NCBI GenBank assembly: GCA_002415345.1
Contig: DHXV01000003.1
Location: 24,213-88,212 of the forward strand
Source: Patescibacteria group bacterium UBA5147
GTDB taxonomy: Bacteria > Patescibacteriota > Saccharimonadia > UBA4664
Reading direction: 5' to 3'
Length of the DNA stretch: 64,000 nucleotides
The position numbers were made by a program, and so were the translations under genes. The notes under the pieces are model-generated. The model was not told where the DNA came from. It did not search any database and was given only the letters and a program-made list of their open reading frames with translations. This document shows, piece by piece, positions 18,326 through 38,109 of this stretch (positions within the stretch are counted from its first letter, which is position 1; each line of letters starts with the position of its first letter).

Positions 18326-18901
18326 ATGATTAAGACACGACTTGCAAAGACAATTTCGATTCTAATCCTGGTAGGGGCGATTTTCGGCTTTGCCATTATA
18401 TTCCTGATGAGGTTCGTCGACGGCCCCGTCTCGGGCAAGGTCAGCTCCACAACGCTGGCCGATGTCAAGGCCAGTGCCGCACCCACCCCACTACCGGCGC
18501 ACCAGCTCGCCGGACTGTATGTAGCCTTGGATTACCCGGCAACCTATGACCAGCTGGCCCAAATTAAAACCGACAAAACGGCCTTGGAACAATATGATAT
18601 GTCCCCAAAGGGCGATTACCGCCAGTCGATTACCGTTCACGTCGCCGAGTTGCCTTCAGGCGATCCGCACGAGGACGCAAGCTACCGCATTCGCGAGCTG
18701 AACACTGCCGAATATCGATCGACGGTTATTCCAGGCGGTGACCGGACTGTCCTTATGACTAAGGCTGACGGCAGCGAACAGACCTTGTTTGTGGTGCATA
18801 AGGCGAGGCTGCTCACCGTAGCGGTGACGTCCACCAGCACCAAGGCGACCGCCAAGGAGATCATGGCAATAATCCAACCAAGCGTGAGGTGGATCCAGTG
18901 A
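18326..18901 (+). CDS. N-terminally anchored hypothetical protein
   Basis: 191 aa, signal-anchor TM (ISILILVGAIFGFAIIFLM), no recognisable motif. Co-oriented and overlapping with the next gene. Confidence 0.45.
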   Translation: MIKTRLAKTISILILVGAIFGFAIIFLMRFVDGPVSGKVSSTTLADVKASAAPTPLPAHQLAGLYVALDYPATYDQLAQIKTDKTALEQYDMSPKGDYRQSITVHVAELPSGDPHEDASYRIRELNTAEYRSTVIPGGDRTVLMTKADGSEQTLFVVHKARLLTVAVTSTSTKATAKEIMAIIQPSVRWIQ

Positions 18902-19953
18902 CGGGAGGCAGATGGCTGCAGGCCGTCCTGTCGGCGGTGATGCTTGCCGCCCTACCGGCGAGCGGTAACTACCAGCTCAATTCCTACGGGTTCGGCACAG
19001 GCGGCACTGCCGGGACCAGTTCGGCCAACTACTCCATTAACGGCATCGCCGGGGATATGGCCGGATCTGCGGCTTCGGCCAATTTTAAAATCGGCGGGGG
19101 GGAAACCTTCGCTAAACAGGCTGATGCCCCCACGGTAACAATCGCTAACAATGCCCAGTGGTATAACAAACTGCTGCTGACGATAGGTCCCGAAGGCAAT
19201 CCTAGCGATGCGCTGTTTGCGGTGGCCATCTCCACCGACAGCTTTGCGACCACCCAGTATGTTAAAAGCGACCTGACTGTGGGCTCGAGCCTGACTCTGG
19301 CCGATTACCAGACTTATGCCGCCTTTGGCAGCGGGAGCGGGGTCTTGATCCGCGGGCTTAAATCGGGAACGGTGTATACCGTAAAAGCCAAAGCGTACCG
19401 CGGCCATTACACGGAGTCCGGCTACGGGCCAACTGCCAACGTCGCGACGGCCGACCCGCAATTATCATTCGACATCAATGTATCAGCAGCCAACACCGTG
19501 ACGGCGCCGCCATATGTCGCGAGCTTCGGTAACCTGTTGCCGAGCAGTGTGACTAATGCCCCTCTGCCGATATGGATTAACTTTGCCTCCAACGCCGAGT
19601 CGGGCGGGAACGTGTATCTCACGGGCCAGAACGCCGGCCTCAGGTCGGCGACCAGCACCTATACCATTGCTTCGCAGTCGGGCGATATCAGCGCGCTCAG
19701 CGAAGGTTTCGGTGCTCAGGTTGCAAGCGTTACTCAAACCTCCGGCGGCCCGTTGTCGGCCTCGGCGCCTTATAACGGCGGCGGATCCATCGTCGGTATC
19801 GCGGACACGGTTTATCGGACCATCATAACGGCCACGGCGCCGGTCGTAGGCGGCCAAAGCTCGGTAACACTCAAGGCCAAGTCCCAGGCGTTGACCCCGG
19901 CTTCCAGTGATTATTCCGAGCTACTGACTCTTGTGGCAGCGGCCAGTTTCTAA
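18889..19953 (+). CDS. secreted surface-subunit family protein, subfamily A
   Basis: Signal peptide, N-terminal NY.LN...G.GG...SANF repeats shared with 34036-34800, Thr/Ser/Gly/Ala-rich body. C-terminus DYSELLTLVAAASF (family motif). Confidence 0.6.
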   Translation: MDPVTGGRWLQAVLSAVMLAALPASGNYQLNSYGFGTGGTAGTSSANYSINGIAGDMAGSAASANFKIGGGETFAKQADAPTVTIANNAQWYNKLLLTIGPEGNPSDALFAVAISTDSFATTQYVKSDLTVGSSLTLADYQTYAAFGSGSGVLIRGLKSGTVYTVKAKAYRGHYTESGYGPTANVATADPQLSFDINVSAANTVTAPPYVASFGNLLPSSVTNAPLPIWINFASNAESGGNVYLTGQNAGLRSATSTYTIASQSGDISALSEGFGAQVASVTQTSGGPLSASAPYNGGGSIVGIADTVYRTIITATAPVVGGQSSVTLKAKSQALTPASSDYSELLTLVAAASF

Positions 19954-20094
19954 TGATGTGGTGTTGTGGAAAAGAAACGTTGTAAAAAGTGTTGACAAGC
20001 CTAAGCGTATTGCTGTAAATTAAGCGTAAGTAGTTTTAAAAACAAAACGTCGGTGGAAAAACTAAACACGCCTCCGACAGAAAATAAACCAAAA

Positions 20095-21213
20095 ATGAAA
20101 TCCAGAAAATTAAAACTCATCTTTGCTACCACCACGGCTATAGTTTTAGAAATTATGGCACCTACCTTTATTCAGGTGGCTAACGCCGCGAGTGCGCCTC
20201 AGTTCACGGAGACATTTGTGCGGGTTGATCGTCACAAGGCTCTTACACAAACTGGTCTCATGGTCTGTGCCAAGCCGTCGGCGGCCAGTACCGCCGGAAT
20301 TGAAGCGGCAGTGAATATAACGTTACCGACATTGTTGGGCGCGGGCACGGACTTTGTGGTGAACGCGACAGCCGCCAACTGGACGGTAGACGTTTTGAAT
20401 CTACCAACTGAGCCAGGCAGCACCGGCCCAGCCGTGGCTGCAACCGCATGGCCAGGAATCGGAACCGCCACGAATGTCAGCGGACATACCGTAACGTTCC
20501 CATCGGGAGACCTGACAGCTGCGACTCTTTACTGCTTCCACATCTCCGGGACTAACACCTTTACGACCAGTACTGCCGCCGCAGGATCAGCCATCGTTAA
20601 TGCGACTTTGTACACTGAGGACAGCGTTCCGGCTACAATCAACCAAACAAACTGGTCAACCTCGGTAATCACTGACGACCAAATCGTAATCTCCGCCATC
20701 GTACCTCCTAGCTTCTCACTGACTCTCGATGGTAATACCGATGCCTTCCAGTTCAATCTGGACCCGGCCGCCACAATCAGCACCGGCGGCCGTACCGTCA
20801 GCGTCGTCACCAACGCAGTAGGTGGATGGATAGCCTGGGTAAAGGACACCCAGCAGGGCCTATACTCCGCGACGGCTAACTACACCATCCCGACCAAAGG
20901 GACGATCAACGCCACTCCCGAAGCGTTAACGAACGGCACCGAAGGCTACGGATTAGTCACATCCATTACCACGGCCAACGTGGGCGGCTGTACGACGGTA
21001 GTAGATCCGGAGTACAACGGCTCAGCCACCGACGTGGGTGCCTTCAGCGCATCCTTCCAGCCGATCGCCGCCTGTACCAGGACAGGGGCTCCTCCTGGAA
21101 CCTCCGACGGTGACGTGCTCACCCTGATCGAGCGGGCGACCATCAGAGGTGGTACTCCGGCCGGATCAGACTACTCGGACATTCTTACCATCGTCGGAGC
21201 CGGTAACTTCTAA
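20095..21213 (+). CDS. secreted surface-subunit family protein, subfamily B
   Basis: MKSRKLKLIFATTTAIVLEIMAPTFIQVANA signal peptide. The tracked GTG 20053 is 42 nt upstream. ANWTV, YCF.ISGT, AIVPPSFSLTL.GNTD motifs shared with 21337-22419. C-terminus DYSDILTIVGAGNF. Confidence 0.6.
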   Translation: MKSRKLKLIFATTTAIVLEIMAPTFIQVANAASAPQFTETFVRVDRHKALTQTGLMVCAKPSAASTAGIEAAVNITLPTLLGAGTDFVVNATAANWTVDVLNLPTEPGSTGPAVAATAWPGIGTATNVSGHTVTFPSGDLTAATLYCFHISGTNTFTTSTAAAGSAIVNATLYTEDSVPATINQTNWSTSVITDDQIVISAIVPPSFSLTLDGNTDAFQFNLDPAATISTGGRTVSVVTNAVGGWIAWVKDTQQGLYSATANYTIPTKGTINATPEALTNGTEGYGLVTSITTANVGGCTTVVDPEYNGSATDVGAFSASFQPIAACTRTGAPPGTSDGDVLTLIERATIRGGTPAGSDYSDILTIVGAGNF

Positions 21214-21231
21214 ACCGCCTTAATCGAGCAG

Positions 21232-21259
21232 GGAAGCCATGAAAATGGCTTCCTTTTGC
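21232..21259 (+). terminator. rho-independent terminator
   Basis: ggaagccat-gaaa-atggcttcc followed by TTTTGC. Confidence 0.55.
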
Positions 21260-21288
21260 TTGTAGCAGCATTTTGTTCTTGCAACCTG

Positions 21289-21302
21289 CTTATGCTTTAG
21301 CT
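21289..21302 (+). promoter_or_regulatory. CTTATGCT-type extended -10 promoter element (operon 21337-24446)
   Basis: ctgCTTATGCTttagct, 41 nt upstream of the start codon. Confidence 0.35.
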
Positions 21303-21336
21303 AAACTACGTTCAGTAGTGTAGTGAAAGAGGTTAT

Positions 21337-22419
21337 ATGCGGAGCTTACAGCCCCGAGCGATTTATCGAATTGTTATTATTGTGGCAATCGTACTGAGTA
21401 CGTTGTCAGTATTTACTCCTGCTTCAGCTGGGGCTGTCGGCTTTCAACAGGCGTATATCCGCCTGGACCGTCTGAAAGCCAACACGGCAACCGGTGGAAC
21501 CGTTTGTGCCACGCCGGCATCAGCTGCCACGGAAGGCAAAGTAGTTCTAACGTTTCCCTCGACCTATACTCTCAATACCACCGCGGCCAACTGGACCGTC
21601 ACAACAACCAATCTCCCGACGGGCGCCACTGCCTGGGTTGGTATTACGACTGCGACCGCCATTGATAACGTACTAAAAACCGCCACCTTTACATCGGGTG
21701 ATCTCACCGTAGCTACAGAGTACTGCTTTAATTTTTCCGGAACCACCACACTGACCACGGCTGCTAGCGCGGCCACGAACCAACAGGCGAACATTCAGAC
21801 CCAGACGAGCGGTGCAGTCGTGATTGATTTCACCAATATCGCTTTTGCCAACATTAACGATGACCAAATTCTGGTAACCGCCGTGGTCCCGCCATCGTTC
21901 AGCTTCACACTGTCCGGTAACACTGATCCGTTTGTGACCAACCTTGATGCAACCCAGGTGATTTCCACGAGTGGCAAGACAGTTACCGTCACCACCAACG
22001 CCAAAGGCGGCTGGATAGCCTGGGCTAAGGACAGCCAACAGGGCCTGCATTCAGCAACCGCCAACTACACTATCAACACTACCAGCGTGGTATCTGGTTC
22101 ACCGCCCCTAAAACAAGTTTCTGCCGGCGTCGAAGGGTACCTCCTTGATACCGATTTAACTACCGACGCAGCCAGCGGGTGTACACTTGCAATTGACACG
22201 TCTTACGGCGGTACGACTACTGGTGTACCAGTAACTTTGGCAACTGGCGGTGCCTTTAGCGCCAACTTCCAATCGATAGCTGCTTGTACGGGTGCGTCGC
22301 CAGCCTTCTCTGCCGGGGACGTGATCACCCTGATTGAGCGGGCTGCAATTACCAATGCCACGCCAGCTGCCAGCGACTATACTGATATTGTCACTGTTGT
22401 GGGCGCCGGTAACTTTTAG
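21337..22419 (+). CDS. secreted surface-subunit family protein, subfamily B
   Basis: Signal peptide. Paralog of 20095-21213 (ANWTVTTTNLP, YCFNFSGT, AVVPPSFSFTLSGNTD). C-terminus DYTDIVTVVGAGNF. Confidence 0.6.
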   Translation: MRSLQPRAIYRIVIIVAIVLSTLSVFTPASAGAVGFQQAYIRLDRLKANTATGGTVCATPASAATEGKVVLTFPSTYTLNTTAANWTVTTTNLPTGATAWVGITTATAIDNVLKTATFTSGDLTVATEYCFNFSGTTTLTTAASAATNQQANIQTQTSGAVVIDFTNIAFANINDDQILVTAVVPPSFSFTLSGNTDPFVTNLDATQVISTSGKTVTVTTNAKGGWIAWAKDSQQGLHSATANYTINTTSVVSGSPPLKQVSAGVEGYLLDTDLTTDAASGCTLAIDTSYGGTTTGVPVTLATGGAFSANFQSIAACTGASPAFSAGDVITLIERAAITNATPAASDYTDIVTVVGAGNF

Positions 22420-22443
22420 ATCATTTCTGTACAAAGGTCCTTC

Positions 22444-23505
22444 ATGAAGAAACGTTTCCTTCTTTCCCTGTCATTTATCACGCTTATTGGGGCACAAGCT
22501 CTTATCCCCCTAGTTGCTGTGGCGGTCGATTCTAAACCATTAAATCTGATAACCTCGCCGCTACCGATTAACTTGGCGACCGATCCGGGCAAAACCGTGA
22601 GCACGGATCTGAGAATTAAACAGGCCGGCGGCGACACCCAGCGCCTCAAGGTCAGCCTCATGAAATTTGCCGCCTATGGCAGCGAAGGCAAGCCCAGGCT
22701 GGTTGACCGCGGTCCGGGAGACAATTATTTTGACTGGGTAAAATTTGATAAGACCCAGTTCGACGCCCCTTCCAACGTTTGGCAAACAGTGCATATGACG
22801 ATCAACGTTCCTAAGGATGCCGCTTTTGGTTACTACTACGCCGTGGTTTTTAGCCGTGAGGGGGATGACACGCGCCAGGCCGGTAACACCAACGCCATAA
22901 ACGGTGGCACGGCCGTTTTAGTGCTGTTAGATGCCAAGGTGCCCAACGCTGTCCGCTCGCTGCAGTTAAACGCTTTTACGTCCGAACATCGGCTCTACGA
23001 GTTTTTGCCGGCCAAGTTCAAGGTCAGCTTCCACAATAGCGGGAATGTCCATCTGGTCCCGACGGGCAATATTTTCATTAGCAAAGGCAAGACTCAGGTT
23101 GCCACACTATCGATAAATGCTGAACAGGGCAATGTTCTCCCTCAATCCAACCGGGTATACGATAGTAGCTGGGGTGACGGTTACCCTCATAGTGAACCGG
23201 TGGTTGAGGGCGGAAAAACCAAAATCGACGCCAAAAACCAGGAGGTGGACCATTTGGTGTGGAGTAACGGCGAAGGCAAGGACATCACACCCCATCTACG
23301 CATGGGCAAGTATACGGCCCATTTGTTTGCCGTTTACGACGACGGCCAGCGTGACGTACCGGTAGAGAGCGAAATTAGCTTTTGGGTGATCCCGTGGCGC
23401 TTCCTCTTGGCTCTGCTGGGTGTGGCACTACTCATCGGATTCGGCGTCTACGGCTTAATCCGCGGAACCTGGAGCGGGGCGCGTAAGATAGGGCGTAAGA
23501 AATAG
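22444..23505 (+). CDS. two-Ig-domain cell-surface protein with C-terminal TM anchor (CscA/DUF916-DUF3324-like architecture), paralog 1 of 3
   Basis: Signal peptide, beta-rich ectodomain with NSGNVHLVP and GNVLP motifs. C-terminus SFWVIPW + TM + GRKK basic tail. Confidence 0.6.
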   Translation: MKKRFLLSLSFITLIGAQALIPLVAVAVDSKPLNLITSPLPINLATDPGKTVSTDLRIKQAGGDTQRLKVSLMKFAAYGSEGKPRLVDRGPGDNYFDWVKFDKTQFDAPSNVWQTVHMTINVPKDAAFGYYYAVVFSREGDDTRQAGNTNAINGGTAVLVLLDAKVPNAVRSLQLNAFTSEHRLYEFLPAKFKVSFHNSGNVHLVPTGNIFISKGKTQVATLSINAEQGNVLPQSNRVYDSSWGDGYPHSEPVVEGGKTKIDAKNQEVDHLVWSNGEGKDITPHLRMGKYTAHLFAVYDDGQRDVPVESEISFWVIPWRFLLALLGVALLIGFGVYGLIRGTWSGARKIGRKK

Positions 23506-23507
23506 CG

Positions 23508-24446
23508 GTGGCGCTCAGACGCCTGCTAATGGGACTGCTTCTAGCCGGGGGCTTGAGCATTCTGATGGCCCTGCCGGTGCGGGCAGCGAGCCAGGGGTTC
23601 ATTATTTCGCCCGCATTTCAAAGCGTCATCCTGACGGCGGGCCAGACTCACACGCAGTATGCGCTGCAGCTGACCAATTCGACACCCACGGATCAGAATT
23701 TCCGCTTGTCCGCGGTGGATTTCGGCTCGCTTGATGAAAGCGGTGGCGTAGCCTTCCTAGGAATCCCAACCAGCGAACTTGAACATCGGTATGGCTTGGC
23801 AGCCTGGATGAAACTGGGCACCAACACGGTATTTGTAGCGGCGGCGAAGAGCGTCCAGGTAATCGTGACGATTGATAACCGTGCGTCGCTGGCTCCAGGG
23901 GGCCATTATGGGGCGATTTTAGCGACGGCCGTCACCGATACCGGTAAGGATACTGCGGGTGATCCAAGGGTTAACTTGCGCCAGGTATTATCATCCCTGG
24001 TGCTGTTAACCAAAGACGGGGGGATTAACGCTGAGCTCAAACTGACCAGCCAAAGCGTTAACCGGTCCGGGCTGCGGATGCCTAGTGCTACTTCCCAACG
24101 GTTCCAAAATACCGGCAATGTGCATTTGGTACCGCGGGGCACGGTGGTAATAAAAGATCCGGCCGGACGTGTCGTGTCACGCGGAGCGCTCAATGACGGA
24201 TCCGGCACTATCTTGCCCGAGAGTTTTCGCCGCTATGACACACCTCTAATGAGCATCGGCGCCCCCTGGCTACCCGGCCGGTATCAGGCCGTCACGACCT
24301 ATCGCTACGATGGTACCGAACAAACCAAGACGTTGGCGACTAGTTTCTGGTACGTAGGACAAGGAATTGTTTGGATTGCCGCGGTGGCGGTAGTTGGTTG
24401 TGTCGGTTGGCTGGGCTGGTTTTTTTGGCGGCGCAGGCGGAGCTAA
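23508..24446 (+). CDS. two-Ig-domain cell-surface protein with C-terminal TM anchor, paralog 2 of 3
   Basis: NTGNVHLVPRG, GTILPESFRRYD. C-terminus SFWYVGQG + TM + RRRRS. Confidence 0.6.
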   Translation: MALRRLLMGLLLAGGLSILMALPVRAASQGFIISPAFQSVILTAGQTHTQYALQLTNSTPTDQNFRLSAVDFGSLDESGGVAFLGIPTSELEHRYGLAAWMKLGTNTVFVAAAKSVQVIVTIDNRASLAPGGHYGAILATAVTDTGKDTAGDPRVNLRQVLSSLVLLTKDGGINAELKLTSQSVNRSGLRMPSATSQRFQNTGNVHLVPRGTVVIKDPAGRVVSRGALNDGSGTILPESFRRYDTPLMSIGAPWLPGRYQAVTTYRYDGTEQTKTLATSFWYVGQGIVWIAAVAVVGCVGWLGWFFWRRRRS

Positions 24447-24508
24447 CTGGAAGTTGGGTTTTTCCTTATGGTTAAGCCTTATAACTCTTGTGTTTAAGTA
24501 ACAAAACC

Positions 24509-24522
24509 CTTATGCTATAAGG
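24509..24522 (+). promoter_or_regulatory. CTTATGCT-type extended -10 promoter element (giant-protein operon)
   Basis: ccCTTATGCTATAAGgg. TGn + TATAAG, embedded in the inverted repeat CCCTTAT-gct-ATAAGGG. Confidence 0.4.
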
Positions 24523-24539
24523 GTAAATGTTGTTATGGA

Positions 24540-28555: not shown

Positions 28556-31500
28556 ATGCCAAAATTTTCAACGGTTAAGCTTAGGACTATGCCTGGGCTT
28601 CTTCGAATTATCTATCGCCAAAAAAAACCGGTTCATCTGGCAACTCTTGGACTCATTCTTGGCGCAATTATCGCTCCCATTATCAGCCAACTGGTCATTA
28701 ACCAACAATATCGGCTCAGTTCCGACATCACCGCCTTGACCGCCCCGCGCACCCCCAAACTTGAGGCAAAAATGATGCGCGATGAATCTAACAAGCAGAC
28801 GTCTTTCAATGCCTCGGCGAATACGGCGAGCAAAGACAAGCTCCAGTCAAAGATTGGTGCCGGCACATCCGACCAGCTTTATTCGGTAGTGTTCCCTGAC
28901 GACAGCCGCAAAGGCATAACCATCACCGACAACGTCAATCAAGTTGATGTGGTGATGACCCCACGGTTTAAAACCAGTGAGGCACGGTTATCGGATGGCA
29001 GAGTAATATATCCGACCGCAATCAGTTCGGCCAGGCTGGTTTATACCCCCGCGTCCGACGGGCTCAAAGAAGATATCGTCATCGATTCCAAGCCGGGCCA
29101 AGACACTTTGTCTTTTGCCTATGATCTGAAACTTCCGGATTATTTAGAAGCCAGGATGATGCCCGACGGCTCTCTGGGAGTGTATTCCGGGGCACCGGAA
29201 CTGTTCGGGGCGATGTCATACGGCAGTGATAATGATCGTGCCACCATCACTAAGGCGCGCCAGAACGCCGCCAAGAATTATTTGATGTTCGCCATTCCTG
29301 CCCCGGTCGTAAAACAGACGGGTAAGCCGTCTCGGGCTGTGGCGTCCCGTTTCGAATTCAAAGCCGGTGTCCTCACTGTAATAACAACCGGATTGGGTCA
29401 GGCTTCATATCCGTTAACTATCGACCCGACATTCTTTATTTCCAGCAGCAGCGACTTTGACGCCGGTACCGGTGAGGAGGACCTCGACTACAGCGTAGCC
29501 GGGCAAATCGGCCGGGCGGCCCTTACGGGCGGGGCGGTTAACAGCTGGACCGCAACTAATACGTTACCGAACGCCCAGTGGGGGGTATCATCAGCCGGGT
29601 ACAACAATTACTTGTACACGACCGGGTCGTACCAGGGATCAATGTACACCTCCCATGCGCCGGTCAATTCCAACGGCTCACTTGGCACGTGGGTATCGGA
29701 CGGGGTCACTTATACTCCCGGCAAAATCGGCTCTCGCATGGTTGCCTATAATGGCTATTTATACACGCTGGGTGGCGAAGATAGCTCAACGCACACGCAG
29801 TATGCGACCGTGTTGTACTCGAAAATCGATGCGATAACGGGCGCTGCCGGTACCTGGAACAGCACTACCGGTTTCTCCGGGGCGCGGGCGTTCTTTGGTG
29901 CGGTGGTTTATAAGGGTTACATCTACCTGATGGGCGGTGGCCAGGGCGCTAATGAAACGGCCGCCAGCGACGTGCAGTATGCCAAAATCAATGGTGACGG
30001 AACTTTGGGTACCTGGGCGACCACTACGGCCTTGTCGAGCGCGCGCGAAGGGTTGGCTGCCACTGCGCAGAACGGCTGGCTTTATGTGACCGGTGGCCGG
30101 AGCGGTACGTCCGCATCCACTAACGCAAAGACTACGGACGTGTATCGGGCTGCTCAAAATGCCAACGGAACACTCGGGAGCTGGGCACAGACCACCTCAT
30201 TTAATACGGCGCGACGGGACCATCAGATATCCATTAACAATAACTATATGTATATTACGGGCGGTTGTACCGCCACGGGGGCAGATCCCTGCACCACGCT
30301 GGCTGCTGACACACAATATGCCCCAGTTTATGCTGATGGTACCGTAGGAACCTGGACAGCCAGCGCCAACATCACGACGGCGAGGGATCAGGCCGGAATG
30401 GCCGCCTACCGGGGAAATCTGTATGTAGTGGGCGGCTGCTCTGCCGAAACGGCCGGTCCGGCTTGCGGTACCAGCGATGCTAATGCTTTGGGCAGCGTCC
30501 AATACTCCTCCCTGGCGGCTGCTGGCAACATGGCATCAGCAGCGGCATCCGGAAGCACCTTTACGACGGCCCGCCACTCTCAGCTGACAACGGTTTACGA
30601 CGGGTATATGTACGTCGCCGGTGGTTGCGCGGTAAACACTTGCTCTGCCGTTCTCAGTGATACCTATTACGCTTCCGTAGCGGCTGATGGAACAATTGGC
30701 ACTTGGACCGCGACCGGAACCTTGCCCTCGACCGCTAACGACCAGCCTGGTCGGATGGCCTCATGCATGGTCGGGTATAACGGGCGGCTATACATCGTCG
30801 GGGGAGGGCAACTGCACAATGGTAACAACAACCTGGAAACGGTAAGCGACACCGTGGTTGGGGTAATTGGAGCGAGTGGCGCAGTAAGCAGCTGGACAAC
30901 TGGTACGGGAGGATCGCTGCCGGTCAACTCCTGGTATCATTCCTGCGAAACCTACAACGGCTACATCTATGTTATCGGTGGCACGACCTCGACTACCGCG
31001 ACCTACCGCACTACTATATATTACGCCACACTCAACGCTGATGGTTCCTTCGGGACTTTTGCCACCACCACCAATACCTTTGCCACGGGACGTAACAGCC
31101 AGGCCTCCGCGGTTTGGCATGGCTATCTCTACATTGGCGGAGGGTATACGGGCAGTGCGTATTTGAACGATATCCAATATGCGAAAATGGGTAATGCCGG
31201 CGACATTACGAGTACTTTTGCAACCGCCGGAAACACGTTTACGCAAACCCGCAGATTCCTGACGATGGTTGCTACCAACGCCGTGTTATATGTATACGGA
31301 GGCTATACCGGGTCGGCGGTTAGGAGCGATGTACAGTACTCTACCCTGGATCCGACGACAGGTGCACCTGGCACTTTCACAACATCAGGATCGACGCTAT
31401 CGACTGCCCGCTGGGGGACAGGCACGTCATACCGTGGTGTCTTATATCTGGTGGGTGGATGCACGACCGCCAACTGCACCGGTTTCTCAAACGTAACTGA

Positions 31501-32965
31501 TATTTTACAGACTAACAACGGCGGTAACGGCCAGACGGCGACCTGGACGACAAGCGGCTCAAATTATACTACGGCTCGCGTCGACTTCATGAGCGTGGCG
31601 TATAACGGCTTCGTTTATGTAATGGGCGGATGCGCCGCGTTCGGCAATGGTAACGGCACTTGCACCAATACTCTAACCACCGTGTGGGCCGCACCAATCA
31701 ATGCTGACGGCTCGCTGGGCACCTGGGTTGCCGCGACTGCGCTTCCGTCAGCCCGGTACAGCGGCTCAGTGGTGGCTTATAATAACCGGATCTATGTGAT
31801 TGCTGGCAGCAGTGGTGCTACGGCACTTTCAAGCGTAATTTACACCCAACAGGCAGCAAATGGCACTCTGGGCGCCTGGCAGACGGTAGCTGCCAATGAT
31901 ATGCCCGGCGGAGCGGCCCGATATGACGGTGATGCCACATTGTATGGATCTTATATTTACGTAGGGTCGGGTTATAACGGAACCGCCCAACTGAGTGACA
32001 TTTATTACGCTCAAATTACCACGGCCGGAAACCTGGCGGCCAACTCTGGCTGCGGTACTACTTGGTGCACAGGTACTTCATTCACTACCATACGGCGTAG
32101 TGCCTCTCTATTCGCATATAACGGTACCCTCTATATTGCCGGAGGGGTGTCCGGAACGACAACCCTGCGTGACGTGCAATACGCTCCAATTAACTCCAAC
32201 GGCACCATTGGGACTTGGAATTACACCAATGCCATTGAAAGCGGTATCATCGACATTCCGGTGGTCGGCTCAAACGGATACATATATATGATGGGAACGG
32301 CGCGCGACACCAGCGACATTACTTATTTTGCGGTGAGTGCCAACGGCACTCTGGGGCAGTCTGCCAACAGTAACGCCAAGATGGCCGCCAACCACTCGCG
32401 AGGATCGGCCGTTACCAACGCCGGTTTCGTCTACGTTCTGGGTGGCTGTACCACGCTCGGGACGGGCGGGGACTGCACCACTATGAACCAGACGATTGAA
32501 TATACCGGACAGCAGGCATCCGCGCGTATCGGCCGTTATGCCAGGCTATTTAGTACCGGTGCCGACACTGCCCCCTCACAGGTGGTCATGAATGGTACAC
32601 TATCAAGTTACAACTCGGCGGTTCAACTCTCTTTCCAGACCGCTAGCCAGGCCGACCCGGTGCTGGGTTTAGCTCAAATCATCAATCCGGTGGTGTTTAA
32701 TACCAACTACTCAGTCCTGGCACTGGATACCAGCGGAACTAACGTCGGCGTGGCCTACAACTATTTCCTAGAATTACTTCTGGATGACTCCGCGTCCAGT
32801 TCCTTCCCGGATGTGCCAACATCAGGGACCCAGACGTCAATCAACAATTTTATCCTGTACTACCATGCCAACCCCGGCCGACGGCTACGACACGGTGCCA
32901 GCTTCAACGATACTAGCTGCTCCGACACCCCGGCCACAGGCTGTGTCTTGGACACGGCCCCGTAG
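28556..32965 (+). CDS. giant surface protein with arrays of Kelch-type beta-propeller repeats (about 1470 aa)
   Basis: Signal-anchor HLATLGLILGAIIAPIISQLVI. At least 20 repeats of the form YNGYLYTLGG, YKGYIYLMGG, NGWLYVTGG, YRGNLYVVGG, YDGYMYVAGG. Tracked GTG 28544 overlaps the upstream stop; ATG 28556 is the likely start. Confidence 0.7.
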   Translation: MPKFSTVKLRTMPGLLRIIYRQKKPVHLATLGLILGAIIAPIISQLVINQQYRLSSDITALTAPRTPKLEAKMMRDESNKQTSFNASANTASKDKLQSKIGAGTSDQLYSVVFPDDSRKGITITDNVNQVDVVMTPRFKTSEARLSDGRVIYPTAISSARLVYTPASDGLKEDIVIDSKPGQDTLSFAYDLKLPDYLEARMMPDGSLGVYSGAPELFGAMSYGSDNDRATITKARQNAAKNYLMFAIPAPVVKQTGKPSRAVASRFEFKAGVLTVITTGLGQASYPLTIDPTFFISSSSDFDAGTGEEDLDYSVAGQIGRAALTGGAVNSWTATNTLPNAQWGVSSAGYNNYLYTTGSYQGSMYTSHAPVNSNGSLGTWVSDGVTYTPGKIGSRMVAYNGYLYTLGGEDSSTHTQYATVLYSKIDAITGAAGTWNSTTGFSGARAFFGAVVYKGYIYLMGGGQGANETAASDVQYAKINGDGTLGTWATTTALSSAREGLAATAQNGWLYVTGGRSGTSASTNAKTTDVYRAAQNANGTLGSWAQTTSFNTARRDHQISINNNYMYITGGCTATGADPCTTLAADTQYAPVYADGTVGTWTASANITTARDQAGMAAYRGNLYVVGGCSAETAGPACGTSDANALGSVQYSSLAAAGNMASAAASGSTFTTARHSQLTTVYDGYMYVAGGCAVNTCSAVLSDTYYASVAADGTIGTWTATGTLPSTANDQPGRMASCMVGYNGRLYIVGGGQLHNGNNNLETVSDTVVGVIGASGAVSSWTTGTGGSLPVNSWYHSCETYNGYIYVIGGTTSTTATYRTTIYYATLNADGSFGTFATTTNTFATGRNSQASAVWHGYLYIGGGYTGSAYLNDIQYAKMGNAGDITSTFATAGNTFTQTRRFLTMVATNAVLYVYGGYTGSAVRSDVQYSTLDPTTGAPGTFTTSGSTLSTARWGTGTSYRGVLYLVGGCTTANCTGFSNVTDILQTNNGGNGQTATWTTSGSNYTTARVDFMSVAYNGFVYVMGGCAAFGNGNGTCTNTLTTVWAAPINADGSLGTWVAATALPSARYSGSVVAYNNRIYVIAGSSGATALSSVIYTQQAANGTLGAWQTVAANDMPGGAARYDGDATLYGSYIYVGSGYNGTAQLSDIYYAQITTAGNLAANSGCGTTWCTGTSFTTIRRSASLFAYNGTLYIAGGVSGTTTLRDVQYAPINSNGTIGTWNYTNAIESGIIDIPVVGSNGYIYMMGTARDTSDITYFAVSANGTLGQSANSNAKMAANHSRGSAVTNAGFVYVLGGCTTLGTGGDCTTMNQTIEYTGQQASARIGRYARLFSTGADTAPSQVVMNGTLSSYNSAVQLSFQTASQADPVLGLAQIINPVVFNTNYSVLALDTSGTNVGVAYNYFLELLLDDSASSSFPDVPTSGTQTSINNFILYYHANPGRRLRHGASFNDTSCSDTPATGCVLDTAP

Positions 32966-33000: not shown

Positions 33001-33918
33001 CTATTGGGTTACGAAGTAGTCGAAAGCGAGCACTGAGCCGGCCGGAGGGGGAGAATCGGTACGTATCTGGAATCCGGAGGAAGTGCGGTTTACGTAGACA
33101 GGAGTTGCGGCGCTTGCCCCGGTAAGCGGCGACAGCAGAACATGGACGCCACCGGTGAAGCCCGCGCGGAAGGTAACCGAGGCCAAGATTCCGGCTGCCG
33201 TGCCGCTGCCGGTGTTAACGTTAACGGTACCCGCAGTGTCGTTACCGCTGATGTTAACCGTTCCGCCGCCGCCAATGGCGCTTCCGGCCGTGATTCCCGG
33301 GGTTGCGCCTTGGGTGCGCAGATGTCCGATGGTCAGAGGCCCGGCAATGGAAATAGTTTGCGTGGAAATGGATTGCGTGTTCAGCGTGTTGACGCTGGCT
33401 GCTCCGCTCACATTGAGGCCGCCATTCACTGACAGTAACTGAGAAACTGTCAGTCCTTTAAGCAGGGTGGTTGTTCCTGATACCGTTAGATTGGACCCCA
33501 CGCTCAGTCCGGAAAGTGCGGTGGTGCCGCTGATATTAAGCTCACTCAAGGTTACTGGCCCGTTGGCATTGAAATGGCCGCCCACACTAAGGTCGCCGGC
33601 GACGTCCAATTTCCCGCGGAACAGGGAATTGGCGCCAATATTAAGGGTCTGGTTGGAGTTACCCAGGCTGGTGCTGACGTCGGTAAGCTTTTGGATATCT
33701 TCCTGACTCAAGGTCTGGACCTGGGTTTTAGCGGGAACAGCCGTTTTCTTGGTACTCAGCGAATAAAAGTATCCCACCACAGCCCCGACGAATAACACGC
33801 AGATGAGCAGCGCGACAACGGTTGAAATATTGTTGGCCCGCCTGATCATGCGCGACCATGAACGCCCCTCCTTACGGGGCGGCGGGTTTGTGGGGGTTGG
33901 CAGTGTGGTAGGGGGCAT
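33001..33918 (-). CDS. membrane-anchored beta-helical repeat protein (paralog 2 of 2)
   Basis: 305 aa. Basic N-terminus, TM, LNISGTTALSGLSVGSNLTVSGTTTLL beta-helix-like repeats. C-terminus VLAFDYFVTQ matching 16180-17286. Confidence 0.55.
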   Translation of the reverse strand: MPPTTLPTPTNPPPRKEGRSWSRMIRRANNISTVVALLICVLFVGAVVGYFYSLSTKKTAVPAKTQVQTLSQEDIQKLTDVSTSLGNSNQTLNIGANSLFRGKLDVAGDLSVGGHFNANGPVTLSELNISGTTALSGLSVGSNLTVSGTTTLLKGLTVSQLLSVNGGLNVSGAASVNTLNTQSISTQTISIAGPLTIGHLRTQGATPGITAGSAIGGGGTVNISGNDTAGTVNVNTGSGTAAGILASVTFRAGFTGGVHVLLSPLTGASAATPVYVNRTSSGFQIRTDSPPPAGSVLAFDYFVTQ

Positions 33919-33950
33919 TTGGGTAAATTCTCTTATCTATCAATATAGCG

Positions 33951-33966
33951 CTTATGCTCCTACAAT
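33951..33966 (+). promoter_or_regulatory. CTTATGCT-type promoter element in the divergent region 33919-34035
   Basis: gcgCTTATGCTcCTACAATcc. Confidence 0.35.
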
Positions 33967-34035
33967 CCAACTCTACAATCGTTAATTAGCCTAAGCGGTT
34001 TGAAAATATCATTGGTATAGGCCATTATAGATAAC

Positions 34036-34800
34036 ATGAGACGATTGCGAATTGTAGGAGTATACGCCCTGGCCGGCATAATTGGCTGGCCCACCGCGGC
34101 CCTGGCCGTGACCCCGGGCGACCCGTCATTCAGGTCGACTAACTACAGTATCAACGAGAGCTATATTGGACCGGGCGGGGACAGCCAGGGCATCTCCACC
34201 AGCTATAAGACTCAAGGCTCAACCTTGGGAGATACCGGCGTAGGTAATTCCGGCTCGGCCAACTTTCAGGCCAACAGCGGTTATGACACCACCAACGATC
34301 CGCGGTTGAGTTTTACCGTTAACACGGCTTCCGCCGATTTAGGCGTTCTGTCCACGTCTGTGGCGTCTACGGCCACGGCTACCTTCAGTGTCCTCAATTA
34401 CACGTCGTACGGGTACGTCGTTTCTATGGTGGGAAGTCCGCCTAGTAATAGCGGGCATCCGCTGTCTGCCCTTGCAACCGATACTGCCAGTGCTAACGGG
34501 GTGGAACAATTTGGAATTAACCTGGTTGCCAACACGAGCCCGGTGTCGGTAGGAGCTAACCCGGTTCAGGACGTCAGCGGTTCCACCACATTTGGTTTTG
34601 GGCGCGCCGGTACCGGCGCCGGCACGGCCTATGCTCAAACTAATTTGTATCGATACGTTCCCGGCGAAACCATCGCCTCGGCACCAAAATCCTCTGGCAT
34701 AACCAACTACACGATGTCGTTTATGGCCAACATGAGTACCACGACTCCAGGTGGCAAATACTCGGGTCCCATGACGCTCATTTGTACCGGTACATACTAA
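34036..34800 (+). CDS. secreted surface-subunit family protein, subfamily A
   Basis: Signal peptide. STNYSINESYIGPGG...SANFQANSG N-terminus (paralog of 18889-19953), FGINLVANTSP. C-terminus YSGPMTLICTGTY. Confidence 0.6.
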   Translation: MRRLRIVGVYALAGIIGWPTAALAVTPGDPSFRSTNYSINESYIGPGGDSQGISTSYKTQGSTLGDTGVGNSGSANFQANSGYDTTNDPRLSFTVNTASADLGVLSTSVASTATATFSVLNYTSYGYVVSMVGSPPSNSGHPLSALATDTASANGVEQFGINLVANTSPVSVGANPVQDVSGSTTFGFGRAGTGAGTAYAQTNLYRYVPGETIASAPKSSGITNYTMSFMANMSTTTPGGKYSGPMTLICTGTY

Positions 34801-34823
34801 TTAATGTCACTAACATAAGCGGG

Positions 34824-34852
34824 TTGACCTGGTAATTATTCTTATGCTAATA
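34824..34852 (+). promoter_or_regulatory. sigma70-like promoter with CTTATGCT extended -10 (subfamily C operon)
   Basis: -35 TTGACC, 17-nt spacer, cttaTGcTAATAT. Confidence 0.45.
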
Positions 34853-34893
34853 TTCATGCATTAGTATGGTCATAAAAGGGAATTGAATTAACC

Positions 34894-36012
34894 ATGAAAA
34901 ACGTATCAATTAAATTAAAGGACTTGCGTCGGAAACTGGCCGTATGGGCTTCCGTTGTTGCTATGGCATCGATGGCATTGCTTCCAGGCGCTGCTAGTGC
35001 AGCCGGCCAATTGACTGCTCGTAAGACCGTGCTTACTAGTTCGGCAGCTGCCGCAGTGACAACTTACGTCACCACATTCACTATGGGAACCGCCGGCCAA
35101 ACGCTGGGTTCCTTAAAAGTTGAACTATGCGACTCGCCGCTTCAAACTGCCTCGTGTGTCAACACTGGTAGCTCCTCCGGCGTTAGCATGTCTGCTGCCG
35201 CTTTAACTGGCGTTACCGGTGCAGTTGGAACGGGTACCTGGACTATAGGTACCAGAACCGCTAATTCCGCCCTGGTTAACAAGTCCACAAACGATGTTCA
35301 GACCGCTAACCCAACCCTGGTTGTAACCTTGACCACCATTACGAACCCAACGGCGATCAACTCGCCATTCTATCTCCGCGTTTCAACCTACACAGCTACA
35401 GCCGGTGGTGGAACTAATACCGACTTTGGTGCCATGGCACTGTCTACTACCCAATCATTAACTGTTTCAGCCAACGTTCAGGAAAGTCTGACCTTCTGCA
35501 CTGGCACCAACGTTGCTTCAACGAGCTGTGGTGATATCACTGGCAGCACCGTTAGCGTCGGCACTGGTACCGACAACATCCTATCGACATCACCATCGGG
35601 TGGAGTATCCGTCATGTACGCGGCTACCAACGGCACCAGTGGGTACTCCGTTACCTACTTTGCCGCGAACTTCTCGTCTTCTAGCGACACCATTGCGTCC
35701 AACGGTGCTGTCAAAGCCGCCTTACCGGCAGTCGGAACCGCCGCCTTCGGTATCAACCTGGCTGCCAACGCGACGCCGTCAATTACCGGTTCTTCCGCAG
35801 TCTCTGGTGCCGGTTCAGGCGCCGTGGATGCCAACTACAACACCGCAAACCAATTCGCTTTTGTACCCTCGGCAGCATCGGCCGTGGCTTCAGCGGCCGG
35901 GCCTACCCTCATAAACAAGTACGTCGTGTCATACGCCGGTCAAGCTGGCAGCACGACCAAGCCTGGCGCCTTCTCGACAGTCTTCACCTACGTCGCTACC
36001 GCCACTTTCTAA
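34894..36012 (+). CDS. secreted surface-subunit family protein, subfamily C
   Basis: Signal peptide, conserved Cys pair (ELCDSPLQTASC; LTFCTGT), FGINLAANATP. C-terminus FSTVFTYVATATF. Confidence 0.6.
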   Translation: MKNVSIKLKDLRRKLAVWASVVAMASMALLPGAASAAGQLTARKTVLTSSAAAAVTTYVTTFTMGTAGQTLGSLKVELCDSPLQTASCVNTGSSSGVSMSAAALTGVTGAVGTGTWTIGTRTANSALVNKSTNDVQTANPTLVVTLTTITNPTAINSPFYLRVSTYTATAGGGTNTDFGAMALSTTQSLTVSANVQESLTFCTGTNVASTSCGDITGSTVSVGTGTDNILSTSPSGGVSVMYAATNGTSGYSVTYFAANFSSSSDTIASNGAVKAALPAVGTAAFGINLAANATPSITGSSAVSGAGSGAVDANYNTANQFAFVPSAASAVASAAGPTLINKYVVSYAGQAGSTTKPGAFSTVFTYVATATF

Positions 36013-36058
36013 GACTCTCTCTCGTTATTCTAGTAACCATTAACGACTGAAGCCAATC

Positions 36059-37096
36059 GTGAAAATAAACCGACTCATTTTAAAAGCCATTCTTGTCGCA
36101 ACTGCGGTATCCATACTACCGCTTGCGGCCATGGCAACAGAGGTAACCGATCGGAGTATTACGTTAGGTTCCTCTGCCCCGGGAGCTATAACGACCCATA
36201 CTTTCGGCCTCACCGTACCGAGCACTGCAAATGTTGGATCCATTGAGTTCAAATATTGCACCACACCCCTCGGTGCCTGCACCACCCCCGCGGGCCTCGT
36301 TACCACCGTCGCGTCGCTAATAAACCAGACGGGTGCTACAGGCTTCAGTGTAGTCAACACTAATAACGGCACGCCGTACATTTCACGCGGTTCCGCCAGT
36401 ATTCCGGCGACAACGCAAGTCACATATCAGTTCTCCGGTGTAACCAACCCGTCAGGGGTGAACGTCGAATATTGGGTCCGGGTTAACACCTACGCGAGCA
36501 TCGACACCACCGGTTCCCCTATAGATGGCGGAGTCGTCGACTTTGTTACCACAAGTGATATCACCGTTTCAGGAATCATGCCTGAATCACTGATCTTCTG
36601 CGTCGGAACCAGTGGCACCAGTTGTGCCAATATTACCGGTAGTGCCGTGAGTCTTGGAATTTTCAGTCCGGCTCTTACCAACACGGGTACCAGTGTGATG
36701 AGTGCCAGTACTAACGCCTCATTCGGATACACTATCGCGCTGGCTGGAAGTACTCTCAGTTCCGGGGCCAATACTATTACATCCATGGGGCAGCAGTCTC
36801 AGAACGGTACGGCCTCGGCGTCGGCCGTTGGGACAAGCCAGTTCGGAACGAATCTTAGAGCTAACTCAACACCACCTGTCGGAGCGAACGTGAGTGGTTT
36901 GGGCACAGGAGTAGTCGTAGGCGGGTATAATGTCGTCGATAATTTCCGCTACTTCTCAGGTGATACTTTGGCTAACGCGGGTGGCCCGGTCAACGATAAT
37001 CTCTTCACGAACTCATACATCGTCAACGTGAGCCCCGATCAGGCGGCCGGAGTCTATACCGCTACCATGACCTACATTTGTACGGCGACCTTCTAA
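36059..37096 (+). CDS. secreted surface-subunit family protein, subfamily C
   Basis: GTG start. Signal peptide, FKYCTTPLGACTTPAGLVTT, LIFCVGT, FGTNLRANSTP. C-terminus YTATMTYICTATF. Confidence 0.6.
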   Translation: MKINRLILKAILVATAVSILPLAAMATEVTDRSITLGSSAPGAITTHTFGLTVPSTANVGSIEFKYCTTPLGACTTPAGLVTTVASLINQTGATGFSVVNTNNGTPYISRGSASIPATTQVTYQFSGVTNPSGVNVEYWVRVNTYASIDTTGSPIDGGVVDFVTTSDITVSGIMPESLIFCVGTSGTSCANITGSAVSLGIFSPALTNTGTSVMSASTNASFGYTIALAGSTLSSGANTITSMGQQSQNGTASASAVGTSQFGTNLRANSTPPVGANVSGLGTGVVVGGYNVVDNFRYFSGDTLANAGGPVNDNLFTNSYIVNVSPDQAAGVYTATMTYICTATF

Positions 37097-38109
37097 TGAC
37101 GACGCGCCGCAGTACGGCCATAGCTGTAATCGTGGCTTTGTTGCCGTTTACGGCGAATGCTGCCGCCCTCATCCCCCGGTCGGTACAGCTGGGTTCAAGC
37201 CAAGCCGGCGTAACAACCACTAATACGGTGGCTGTCATGACGGCGACCACATCGAACATTGGGTCCATTGGTTTGAAATACTGTACGACCGCCGCCGGCG
37301 CGTGTACTACTCCCGCCGGCCTTGTAACCACTAGCGCAAGCCTCACCGGACAGATCGGGATAGCCGGCTTTAGTATTAATAACGTGGTCAACGGGGCGCC
37401 GTTTATTAGCAATGGGGCAGTACCGAATGTGAACGTTGGCACGTTGGTTACGCTTAATTTGAGTAGCATCGTAAATCCGTCTAGCGCAAATACAACGTTT
37501 TTTATTCGGGTCACTACATATATCGGTACCGATGGCGCAACCAGTGTAGTCGATGCTGGAACGGTGGCGGTAAGTACCGCACAGGAAGTCCAACTCACAG
37601 GGGTCACGCCGGAAATTCTAATCTTCTGCGTTGGCATCACTATAACCACTGATTGCAGTTCCATGACCGGATCAAATATCGACTTTGGTGATTTTTCGCC
37701 ACAATCTACCCGCACCGGTTCCAGCGTGATGCAGGCCTCAACAAATGCGACCGGGGGGTATAGCGTTACGGTGAACGGAACAACGCTGGCGTCGGGGGTG
37801 AACACAATCCCGGCGCTGGCCGCTCAAACTATATCAACCGTGGGAACGGGGCAGTTTGGTTTGAATCTGCGAGCTAACTTCACACCGGCTGTTGGGGCTG
37901 ACCCAACCGGAGCCGGTACCGGCACGTTTACAGGCACTTATGGCGCTCAGAACCAATACCGATTCAATACGGGTGATTCGGTAGCTACAGCCGCAATGCC
38001 AACCAATGCTAATACGTATACTTCCAGTTATATTGTGAATATCGGTGGGATACAGGCGGCTGGTGTTTATACGTCAACTATGACATATATTTGTACCGCA
38101 AATTTTTAG
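37096..38109 (+). CDS. secreted surface-subunit family protein, subfamily C
   Basis: ATG overlaps upstream stop (TAATG). LKYCTTAAGACTTPAGLVTT, LIFCVGIT, FGLNLRANFTP. C-terminus YTSTMTYICTANF. Confidence 0.6.
   Translation: MTTRRSTAIAVIVALLPFTANAAALIPRSVQLGSSQAGVTTTNTVAVMTATTSNIGSIGLKYCTTAAGACTTPAGLVTTSASLTGQIGIAGFSINNVVNGAPFISNGAVPNVNVGTLVTLNLSSIVNPSSANTTFFIRVTTYIGTDGATSVVDAGTVAVSTAQEVQLTGVTPEILIFCVGITITTDCSSMTGSNIDFGDFSPQSTRTGSSVMQASTNATGGYSVTVNGTTLASGVNTIPALAAQTISTVGTGQFGLNLRANFTPAVGADPTGAGTGTFTGTYGAQNQYRFNTGDSVATAAMPTNANTYTSSYIVNIGGIQAAGVYTSTMTYICTANF

Follow-up and report, generated by a model that had tools for sequence, protein, structure and literature searches.

The window examined here is a stretch of 64,000 nucleotides (nt) from contig DHXV01000003.1 of Patescibacteria group bacterium UBA5147, a member of the Saccharimonadia within the candidate phyla radiation (CPR). 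It contains seven genes for secreted proteins, three in a first gene cluster (locus 1, positions 16180-32965; A1, B1 and B2) and four in a second one (locus 2, 33001-40180; A2, C1, C2 and C3). In all probability these proteins are the subunits of two usher-less pili of the Pam type, which would polymerize by donor-strand exchange in a soil and permafrost lineage of Saccharimonadia. By its sequence, locus 2 is a canonical Pam pilus operon and a member of the described system. Locus 1 is probably a complete, diverged second set which builds a separate fibre.

Pam pili are thin donor-strand-exchange filaments of ultrasmall Saccharibacteria (bioRxiv 10.64898/2026.03.03.709456). In Candidatus Mycosynbacter amalyticus, cryo-electron microscopy (cryo-EM) of the filaments revealed two pilins, PamA and PamB. 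Both comprise an N-terminal domain (NTD) folded as a nine-strand sandwich, a linker consisting of a single strand, as well as a C-terminal domain (CTD) with an open, truncated Ig-like fold which takes up the linker of a neighbour. The pam operon further encodes PamE, the CTD-only tip protein PamT, the RbmA-like PamR, and the chaperones PamC and PamD, which resemble FimC/PapD and carry C-terminal transmembrane (TM) helices; there is no usher. According to prediction, PamR inserts its N-terminal strand into the last pilin; its TM helix serves as anchor of the fibre. By ConSurf analysis, conservation is highest in the donated linker and the site which binds it, and a conserved 'tail fibre-like protein' adjoins the pam operons. 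Three Pam models of NCBIfam release 20 (NF058578, NF058579, NF058581) stem from the same preprint (bioRxiv 10.64898/2026.03.03.709456). Their cut-offs are 240 bits for CPR_pilus_PamT, 55 bits for CPR_Pam_pilin_C and 300 bits for CPR_pilus_PamR, those for PamT and PamR being equivalog cut-offs.

Transferred to the window, this scheme suggests the following course of assembly. The signal peptides imply that the subunits would be exported by the Sec pathway. Each CTD would adopt an Ig-like fold with an open groove, as shown for PamA and PamB of M. amalyticus, and this groove would first be capped by a membrane-anchored chaperone with two Ig domains (D1 or D2 in locus 1, D3 in locus 2). The linker of the incoming subunit (h-x-h-[ST]-[AG]-h-h-P, located between NTD and CTD) would then displace the chaperone strand from the groove of the previous subunit. 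The C-terminal strand, which ends in Phe or Tyr, would line the groove and would not be exchanged itself. A fibre of locus 2 would start with A2 (PamT) and one of locus 1 with A1, both being tips which have a CTD and no donor linker. The shaft would be formed by C1-C3 in locus 2 and by B1 and B2 in locus 1. Lastly, PamR would close the fibre with an N-terminal strand similar to the linker of its own locus and would tie it to the membrane by its C-terminal TM helix.

The seven probable subunits and their two families

All seven open reading frames (ORFs) listed by the initial annotation are present on the + strand with the C-termini quoted there (Table 1). Their N-termini are basic and then hydrophobic, in the manner of signal peptides. 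T, S, G, A and N make up about 50-60% of the residues in each protein, cysteines are few or absent, and the alternating C-terminal strand closes with Phe or Tyr. In these respects the annotation was accurate. For B1 a GTG at 20053 is also open and homologues favour 20095; for C3 the gene callers place the start at 37096, giving 337 amino acids (aa). Antisense ORFs across the region were rejected as spurious, as they overlap annotated genes and are not called by the gene callers where contigs L001-L003 cover the region. With hidden Markov models (HMMs) of the B and C families, no further member was found elsewhere in the 64-kb window.

The proposal that these proteins are polymerizing fibre subunits is supported by three observations: four of the seven pass the curated Pam models, filaments of their homologues have been solved, and both loci encode two-Ig-domain chaperones of chaperone-usher-like type. 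The four proteins are those of locus 2. A2 reaches 262.5 bits with CPR_pilus_PamT (3e-78, full length) and 144.4 bits with CPR_Pam_pilin_C, above both cut-offs; it consists of an N-terminal repeat region and a CTD, without NTD and without linker. C1, C2 and C3 pass CPR_Pam_pilin_C with 79.9, 149.6 and 167.9 bits, respectively. Their linkers are TQSLTVSANVQE (nt 35449-35484), TSDITVSGIMPE (nt 36551-36586) and AQEVQLTGVTPE (nt 37579-37614), and a two-domain architecture is ascribed to them by homology with PamA and PamB, whose structures are solved. PamR2 aligns over its full length with the PamR model (295.5 bits, 3e-88; cut-off 300) and contains a Pfam PKD domain (5.5e-09).

Locus 2 shares with the Pam operon of M. 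amalyticus the order of its genes (first, on the opposite strand, the fibre-like gene, and after it those for PamT, the pilins, the chaperone and PamR), the passed models for PamT and the pilin CTD, the conserved linker and C-terminal strand, the TM-anchored chaperone, a PamR with N-terminal strand and C-terminal TM helix, and the class Saccharimonadia. It differs in that it encodes three PamE-like pilins and neither a 55-kDa PamA-type nor a PamB-type pilin, and one chaperone instead of two.

The relationships between the seven proteins were derived from all-against-all BLASTP comparisons, in which the CTD corresponds to roughly the last 130-160 residues. Full-length alignments connect B1 with B2 (5.8e-97, 49% identity), C2 with C3 (1.4e-92) and C1 with C2 (1.5e-32), and CTD alignments connect A2 with C2 (2.3e-12) and A1 with B1 (6.7e-08). 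These values, which far exceed chance inside each group, indicate two robust CTD groups: A1, B1 and B2 on the one hand and A2, C1, C2 and C3 on the other. A1 and A2 have only the N-terminal Gly/Ser/Asn repeat motif in common (BLASTP 0.9). The initial annotation had distributed the proteins over three subfamilies, with A1 and A2 as 'subfamily A'. Their shared N-terminal repeats (NY.[IL]N and SANF) were indeed found, but CTD homology yields two groups. The three-subfamily scheme mixes this homology with role, i.e. tip versus shaft, and 'subfamily A' unites the two tip-like genes with which the pilin arrays begin, which do not form a CTD family.

A1 is the first gene of its pilin array and thus occupies the place which PamT has in locus 2. 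It combines PamT-like N-terminal Gly/Ser/Asn repeats, an inserted beta domain of ~110 aa and a B-type CTD, with no visible donor linker. Residues 15-76 match the NCBIfam PamT model (4.6e-07, 29.5 bits), A1 also matches the B-family HMM (5.9e-09), and its five syntenic orthologues are 52-62% identical. Assignment of the inserted domain to the fibronectin-III fold had been made by eye only; it was dropped, as no search confirmed it. B1 comprises a beta-sandwich NTD, the linker DDQIVISAIVPP (nt 20674-20709) and a CTD with the final YSDILTIVGAGNF; B2 scores 481 bits with the B-family HMM and carries the linker DDQILVTAVVPP (nt 21859-21894).

PamR, the chaperones and the fibre-like gene, which are the accessory genes of locus 1, have clear paralogues in locus 2. 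PamR1 and PamR2 are 41% identical (BLASTP 4e-68), and PamR1 matches CPR_pilus_PamR over its full length (285.5 bits, 3.5e-85; equivalog cut-off 300). The chaperones D1 and D2 are related to D3 (BLASTP 2.5e-21 and 1.5e-17) and score 295 and 261 bits with the HMM of the chaperone family, and D1 has a hydrophobic helix at its C-terminal side. The fibre-like proteins TFL1 and TFL2 share 36% identity (BLASTP 2.4e-41).

How the B family relates to the C family was addressed by profile-profile comparison. With hhalign, a first result of 4.9e-07 for the full-length profiles was rejected as overstated because the alignment started within the signal peptides. Left in this comparison of secreted families, the signal peptides had inflated the significance by about four orders of magnitude, and the mature regions gave 0.0041, in an alignment which has the linker and a TNA..G[YW] motif in register. 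Comparisons of B with C restricted to the CTD or to the NTD were not significant. PamB-type proteins of other genomes match the C family at 1e-27, mature B at 1.9e-04 and the B CTD at 4.8e-05, the last alignment running through to the C-terminus, and they bridge the two families. Another locus (L073, 4235-7558) combines a weak C-type pilin, a chaperone and a 397-aa protein with weak matches to the B-family (~6e-09) and A1 (~2e-08) HMMs, and may represent an intermediate.

To place the families among the published pilins, genome contigs were scanned with a PamT alignment, which retrieved 67 Saccharimonadia loci; the M. amalyticus genome is not among them. Seven of these loci served as stand-ins. 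Their gene order is PamT, a pilin of 535-677 aa (PamA position), a pilin of ~360-390 aa (PamE position), chaperone, PamR, a pilin of ~385 aa with six Cys (PamB position) and a second chaperone, and the sizes agree with the reported 55.3 and 38.7 kDa, as do the Cys pairs. All three positions type as C family (1.8e-18 for the PamA position and 1e-27 for the PamB position with the C-family alignment), and the PamE-position HMM is the best one for C1 (126 bits), C2 (192) and C3 (214). The B-family HMM matched none of the three positions in the seven stand-in loci, HMMs of these positions matched none of A1, B1 and B2, and the NCBIfam Pam models gave 0 matches at E<=1 among 64 B-family members.

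These results mark locus 1 as a Pam-like system in its own right, widespread, strongly diverged, outside the curated models and probably undescribed; the language-model hits of the preprint may already include it. Relative to M. amalyticus, A1, B1 and B2 lie outside the curated models, the tip carries an extra domain, and two chaperones as well as a conserved small TM protein are present, followed by giant secreted proteins.

Cysteines deserve a separate comment. C2 has the pairs Cys67-Cys74 and Cys181-Cys189 and a lone Cys341 within the C-terminal strand. C2 and C3 each contain five cysteines, and A2 has the one in the C-terminal strand alone. The Cys motifs ascribed to subfamily C were recovered in C2 and C3, but C1 has its Cys pairs in a different context. 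The unpaired C-terminal-strand Cys (C2 Cys341, 37079-37081; C3, 38092-38094; A2 Cys250, 34783-34785) is kept in at least 90% of the C-family pilins; C1 and the PamT proteins of loci L005 and L006 lack it. Conceivably, it forms a disulfide between subunits, with the linker region and its Cys as partner.

Linker strand and a similar strand in PamR

In both families the linker and the C-terminal strand stand out by conservation. Among 9-residue windows of the C family, the two most conserved are the linker with the first CTD strand (PESLIFCVG, top) and the C-terminal strand (ATMTYICTA), which correspond to peaks at residues 175-183 and 335-343 of C2. Among those of the B family, second place goes to the C-terminal strand and fourth place to the linker (ISAIVPPSF). 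Maxima at these two elements agree with the ConSurf result of the preprint.

The structural model of B1 is compatible with a donated linker. AlphaFold2 predicts two beta-rich domains (predicted local distance difference test, pLDDT, 87; predicted template-modelling score 0.62), and the invariant DDQIVISAIVPP sits in no beta ladder of this monomer. In the model the unpaired segment thus behaves as would be expected of a strand destined for another subunit. Structural homology had been proposed as a check. In a Foldseek search of the Protein Data Bank (PDB) with full-length B1, most matches were generic two-domain adhesins (SdrE, SdrG, Cna), besides arrestins, with template-modelling scores of ~0.2, and these were set aside; informative were only the matches of one domain to chaperone-usher pilins (CfaB, FimF/G; probability 0.99-1.0). 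Sequence searches of the PDB with single proteins and profiles, in a set without the Pam structures of the preprint, returned nothing significant, and Pfam gave no fimbrial, SCPU, WxL or fn3 match for the seven proteins and 126 family members.

The PamR proteins provide a further view of the donor. After the signal/TM segment, PamR of the locus-2 type (~49 sequences) reads GS[VI]GL[ST]G[TA]V.GP, which resembles the C linker I.[VL][ST]G[VI][MT]PE. In PamR1 the corresponding strand, GSYSVLAVVPGP (nt 17526-17561), matches the B-family linker. The six known strands of the locus-1 type are SYSVLAVVPGP, KYSVTAVVPGA, SYGVTAVVPGP, SFSVTAVVSGP, QFDVLAVVEGP and GYGVEGVVPGP, and in five of the six genomes they are similar to the B linker DQI.V[TS]A[IV]VPP. 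As its small central residue the strand has Ala in locus 1, but Gly in locus 2. Since the PamR strand resembles the linker of its own locus, the comparison supports, at the level of sequence only, the linker as donor and PamR as a strand-donating terminator. Each locus would then probably be a self-contained system. This correspondence between PamR strand and pilin linker goes beyond the published description that we found.

By analogy with the C-terminal F strand of chaperone-usher pilins, the conserved C-terminal strand most likely lines the acceptor groove. The likeness to the chaperone-usher systems (Pap/Fim, CFA/I, Csu) extends further: an Ig-like pilin domain is completed by the strand of the next subunit, the chaperone has two Ig domains (structural matches of 1e-9 to 1e-6), the tip is without donor, the alternating hydrophobic donor strand has a small residue at its centre, and the C-terminal strand is conserved and aromatic. 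The central small residue can be likened to the P4 Gly of the Pap/Fim N-terminal extensions. In contrast to these systems, Pam has neither usher nor outer membrane, its chaperones are membrane-anchored, its subunits have two domains, and its donor is an internal linker instead of an N-terminal extension. No usher-like ORF was found in either locus by Pfam and NCBIfam scans, and there was no sequence-level match to PapD or fimbrial families.

Membrane-anchored chaperones and competing explanations

The AlphaFold2 model of D3 (pLDDT 86) shows two beta-sandwich domains and a C-terminal helix (residues 299-333). Its top Foldseek match in the PDB is WxLIP of E. faecium (9i1y, 9.9e-11; template-modelling scores of 0.45-0.57 for 9i1y and 9i25), followed by CfaA (1.4e-09) and CsuC (5.7e-08) and, between 1e-9 and 1e-6, by FimC, DraB, SafB and CupB2. 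At the sequence level, 39 of 50 chaperone-family members match Pfam WxLIP_PGBD at E>=8.6e-4, i.e. under the gathering score. D1, D2 and D3 gave no such match at E<=0.1, and a profile search of PDB sequences with the chaperone family did not find WxLIP. None of the 50 members matched the PapD families, and all are TM-anchored.

WxL gene clusters of Firmicutes (PMC10599100) resemble the loci in several respects. Their chaperone-like protein WxLIP (DUF916, DUF3324 and a TM helix) has the same layout and size, a CTD-only short protein is combined with longer proteins which carry the same C-terminal domain, and the envelope of the host is monoderm. Furthermore, one of WxLIP's strands is predicted to enter the WxL domain. 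WxL is not mentioned anywhere in the Pam preprint (bioRxiv 10.64898/2026.03.03.709456).

Locus 1 or both loci could accordingly encode a non-filamentous WxL-type surface complex, in which a membrane-anchored WxLIP-like protein holds a short and a long secreted beta-rich protein at the cell surface by strand insertion, with no polymerization. We consider this unlikely, although it fares best among the alternatives. The best PDB match of D3, E. faecium WxLIP in its structures alone and in complex with a long WxL protein (9i1y, 9i25, 1e-10), speaks for it, as do the sub-threshold WxLIP_PGBD matches, the common arrangement of signal peptide, two Ig domains and C-terminal TM helix, and the parallel between short and long WxL proteins and the tip and pilins here. 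However, chaperone-usher chaperones nearly equal WxLIP in Foldseek score, and the WxLIP matches stay below the Pfam thresholds. Neither the seven proteins nor 62 + 64 family members gave a WxL domain match at E<=1. Locus-2 homologues have been seen as filaments by cryo-EM, and the conserved B linker together with its match in the PamR1 strand makes sense only for serial strand donation. We know of no PamR equivalent in WxL clusters, nor, to our knowledge, have WxL complexes been described as filaments.

A self-contained nature of the seven proteins is still less probable. They would then be secreted beta-sandwich paralogues of S-layer or adhesin type, and their shared C-terminus would be a signal for secretion or wall sorting. 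Composition and signal peptides fit many such proteins. Against this stand the curated family matches, the solved filaments of homologues and the dedicated chaperone-like genes and anchor gene in both loci. A C-terminal LPxTG motif is absent from all seven, the sole LP.[TSA]G lying inside the signal peptide of A1, and no sortase was found among the window ORFs scanned, a few of at least 150 aa having been left unscanned.

The initial annotation had named the C-terminal strand as the exchanged element, with type V pilins, amyloids and S-layer proteins among its models. Here the kind of protein was recognized correctly and the exchanged strand was not: donation of the C-terminal strand, as in the type V pili of Bacteroidota, is the least probable account, because cryo-EM of homologues shows the linker between NTD and CTD as donor, PamR mimics this linker and not the C-terminus, and both tips keep the C-terminal strand without a linker, as fits an acceptor-only tip, even though the strand is among the most conserved elements and has an aromatic end in all seven proteins. 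The type V pili of Porphyromonas (FimA/Mfa1) do share two-domain beta-sandwich subunits polymerized by strand exchange. They are however lipoproteins processed by a protease with a C-terminal donor, and none of the seven proteins has a lipobox (the first Cys stands at residue 57 or later, or is absent) or a match to any family of the type V, amyloid or S-layer kind.

Several points weigh against two Pam-type pili. Filament formation and linker donation were observed in homologues, and for this organism filaments, strand exchange and chaperone complexes are predicted. A1, B1 and B2 fail CPR_Pam_pilin_C, A1 is no PamT equivalog, and both PamR scores lie slightly under the equivalog cut-off. Without signal peptides the direct similarity of B and C is marginal (E 0.0041), and it is not significant for the CTD alone. 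Beyond the paralogy of its accessory genes, the assignment of locus 1 is deduced. Likewise deduced are an open groove in B1 and a C-terminal strand that lines the groove, and the pilin types of M. amalyticus were taken from the seven stand-in loci, which agree with it in the order of the genes, the sizes of the proteins and the numbers of Cys.

Genomic setting, distribution and implications

Table 1. Features of the two loci and of the genes downstream (positions within the window)
Feature	Positions	Strand	Remarks
TFL1, N-terminally membrane-anchored fibre-like protein	16180-17286	-	divergent from the pilus genes; paralogue of 33001-33918
PamR1, RbmA-like putative anchor/terminator	17376-18317	+	signal/TM, N-terminal strand, Ig/PKD-like domains, C-terminal TM helix
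Small protein with N-terminal TM segment	18326-18901	+	between PamR1 and A1
A1	18889-19953	+	tip-like subunit of locus 1
B1	20095-21213	+	two-domain pilin of locus 1, candidate major subunit
Hairpin	21230-21255	+	11-bp stem and T-rich tail, 17 nt past the B1 stop codon
B2	21337-22419	+	second two-domain pilin of locus 1
D1, chaperone-like	22444-23505	+	signal peptide, a pair of Ig-like domains, TM helix and basic tail at the C-terminus
D2, second membrane-anchored chaperone-like protein	23508-24446	+	C-terminal TM helix
1336-aa secreted/anchored protein	24540-28550	+	Thr/Ser/Gly/Ala-rich; four C-x6-C pairs
1473-aa Kelch beta-propeller repeat protein	28544-32965	+	Pfam Kelch families 5.2e-38; N-terminal hydrophobic segment
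TFL2, membrane-anchored fibre-like protein	33001-33918	-	divergently transcribed
A2 (PamT)	34036-34800	+	tip subunit of locus 2
C1	34894-36012	+	Pam two-domain pilin of locus 2
C2	36059-37096	+	Pam two-domain pilin of locus 2
C3	37096-38109	+	Pam two-domain pilin of locus 2
D3, membrane-anchored chaperone (PamC/PamD type)	38199-39203	+	AlphaFold2 model, Foldseek
PamR2, putative anchor/terminator	39227-40180	+	N-terminal strand GSVGLTGAVRGP at nt 39398-39433, PKD domain, C-terminal TM helix
Two type I signal peptidase genes	41997-42626, 42646-43395	-	adjacent, past locus 2 and parAB
LCP (LytR-CpsA-Psr) gene	43493-45082	+	just downstream of locus 2 and parAB

Beyond pilins, chaperones and PamR, both loci contain further genes. 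TFL1 and TFL2 are Gly/Thr/Ser-rich and share a conserved C-terminal [YL]AFDY[WF]V[IT]Q. No Pfam family matched TFL1, and TFL2 has only a weak bactofilin-like Pfam match. Homologues occupy the same position at 41 of the fetched Pam loci. The two are probably the 'tail fibre-like protein' of the neighbourhood network in the preprint. The small TM protein of locus 1 is without Pfam or NCBIfam match and without counterpart in locus 2; each of the five other examples of locus 1 has an orthologue in this place.

Two large proteins follow the chaperones of locus 1. The C-x6-C pairs of the 1336-aa protein (266/273, 446/453, 767/774 and 1035/1042) lie in similar sequence contexts and have the spacing of the Cys67-Cys74 pair of the C family. 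The protein has no family match in Pfam or NCBIfam and is a candidate cargo or adhesin of locus 1. The 1473-aa Kelch protein is a candidate surface adhesin between the two loci, and L006 encodes a Kelch protein of 1592 aa ~4 kb upstream of its locus 2. Neither linker-like motifs nor Pam domains were found in the giant and fibre-like proteins.

The hairpin behind B1 is possibly an attenuating terminator after a major pilin gene, which is suggestive only: in the promoter and terminator scans the total site counts were not above those of shuffled sequences, and this hairpin alone stands out. The best sigma-70-like match of the region lies upstream of B1, at 19992-20021. A layout of promoter and hairpin such as this is often seen around major pilin genes.

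Upstream, the loci are flanked by ftsA/Z, nrdR, a ribonucleotide reductase gene, ileS, ftsW and rplU. A 526-aa ORF between ftsW and rplU (14142-15722) has no Pfam match at E<=1e-5. Downstream, parAB, two signal peptidase I genes and the LCP gene are followed by the genes for ribosomal protein S2 and ribosome recycling factor and by mreB. The signal peptidases and the LCP protein could bear on processing or wall attachment of the secreted proteins. Unlike in M. amalyticus, ATP synthase genes are not among the neighbours, and rplU/ftsW and parAB border the loci.

Metagenomes from soil and permafrost contain identical contigs, and every homologue with a name belongs to the Saccharimonadia. The order of locus 1, adjoining rplU, is kept gene for gene in five other genomes. 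In four of these five, giant ORFs (1662-4651 aa) follow the two chaperones; the fifth (L074) has several medium-sized ORFs instead. The B-family profile retrieves 709 cluster representatives at E<=1e-3, 508 at 1e-10 and 297 at 1e-30. Among these relatives, P0378, P0383, P0385 and P0389 (784-1641 aa) contain a complete B-type pilin module at the C-terminus, and P0505, P0508 and P0510 (~910 aa) have the B-type NTD only, at the N-terminus. Such proteins suggest pilins fused to large extra domains.

The Pam system itself has been known since 2026; locus 1 as a complete second set and the WxLIP resemblance of the Pam chaperones go beyond the descriptions that we found. We put forward the following wider interpretation as a tentative one, with the odds somewhat against it. 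Locus 1 may represent an undescribed second class of CPR strand-exchange pilus, parallel and orthogonal to Pam within one ultrasmall cell, whose specificity would be set by co-varying Ala- or Gly-centred donor strands copied in PamR. The Pam chaperones may be homologues of WxLIP, so that Pam and WxL would be branches of an ancient usher-less, anchored-chaperone pathway of single-membrane bacteria.

Pam pili are thought to let episymbiotic or parasitic Saccharibacteria reach their host cells and were recognized in 2026 in one cultivated species. The window shows that soil Saccharimonadia carry Pam in another composition, with three PamE-like pilins and no pilin of PamA or PamB type. Since locus 1 is missed by the current curated models, these abundant surface proteins will come out of annotation pipelines as hypothetical. 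The correspondence of PamR strand and linker suggests how two fibres could be kept apart in one cell. Finally, the likeness to WxLIP offers a testable evolutionary link from CPR pili to a surface system which lactobacilli, enterococci and Listeria possess and which is poorly understood.

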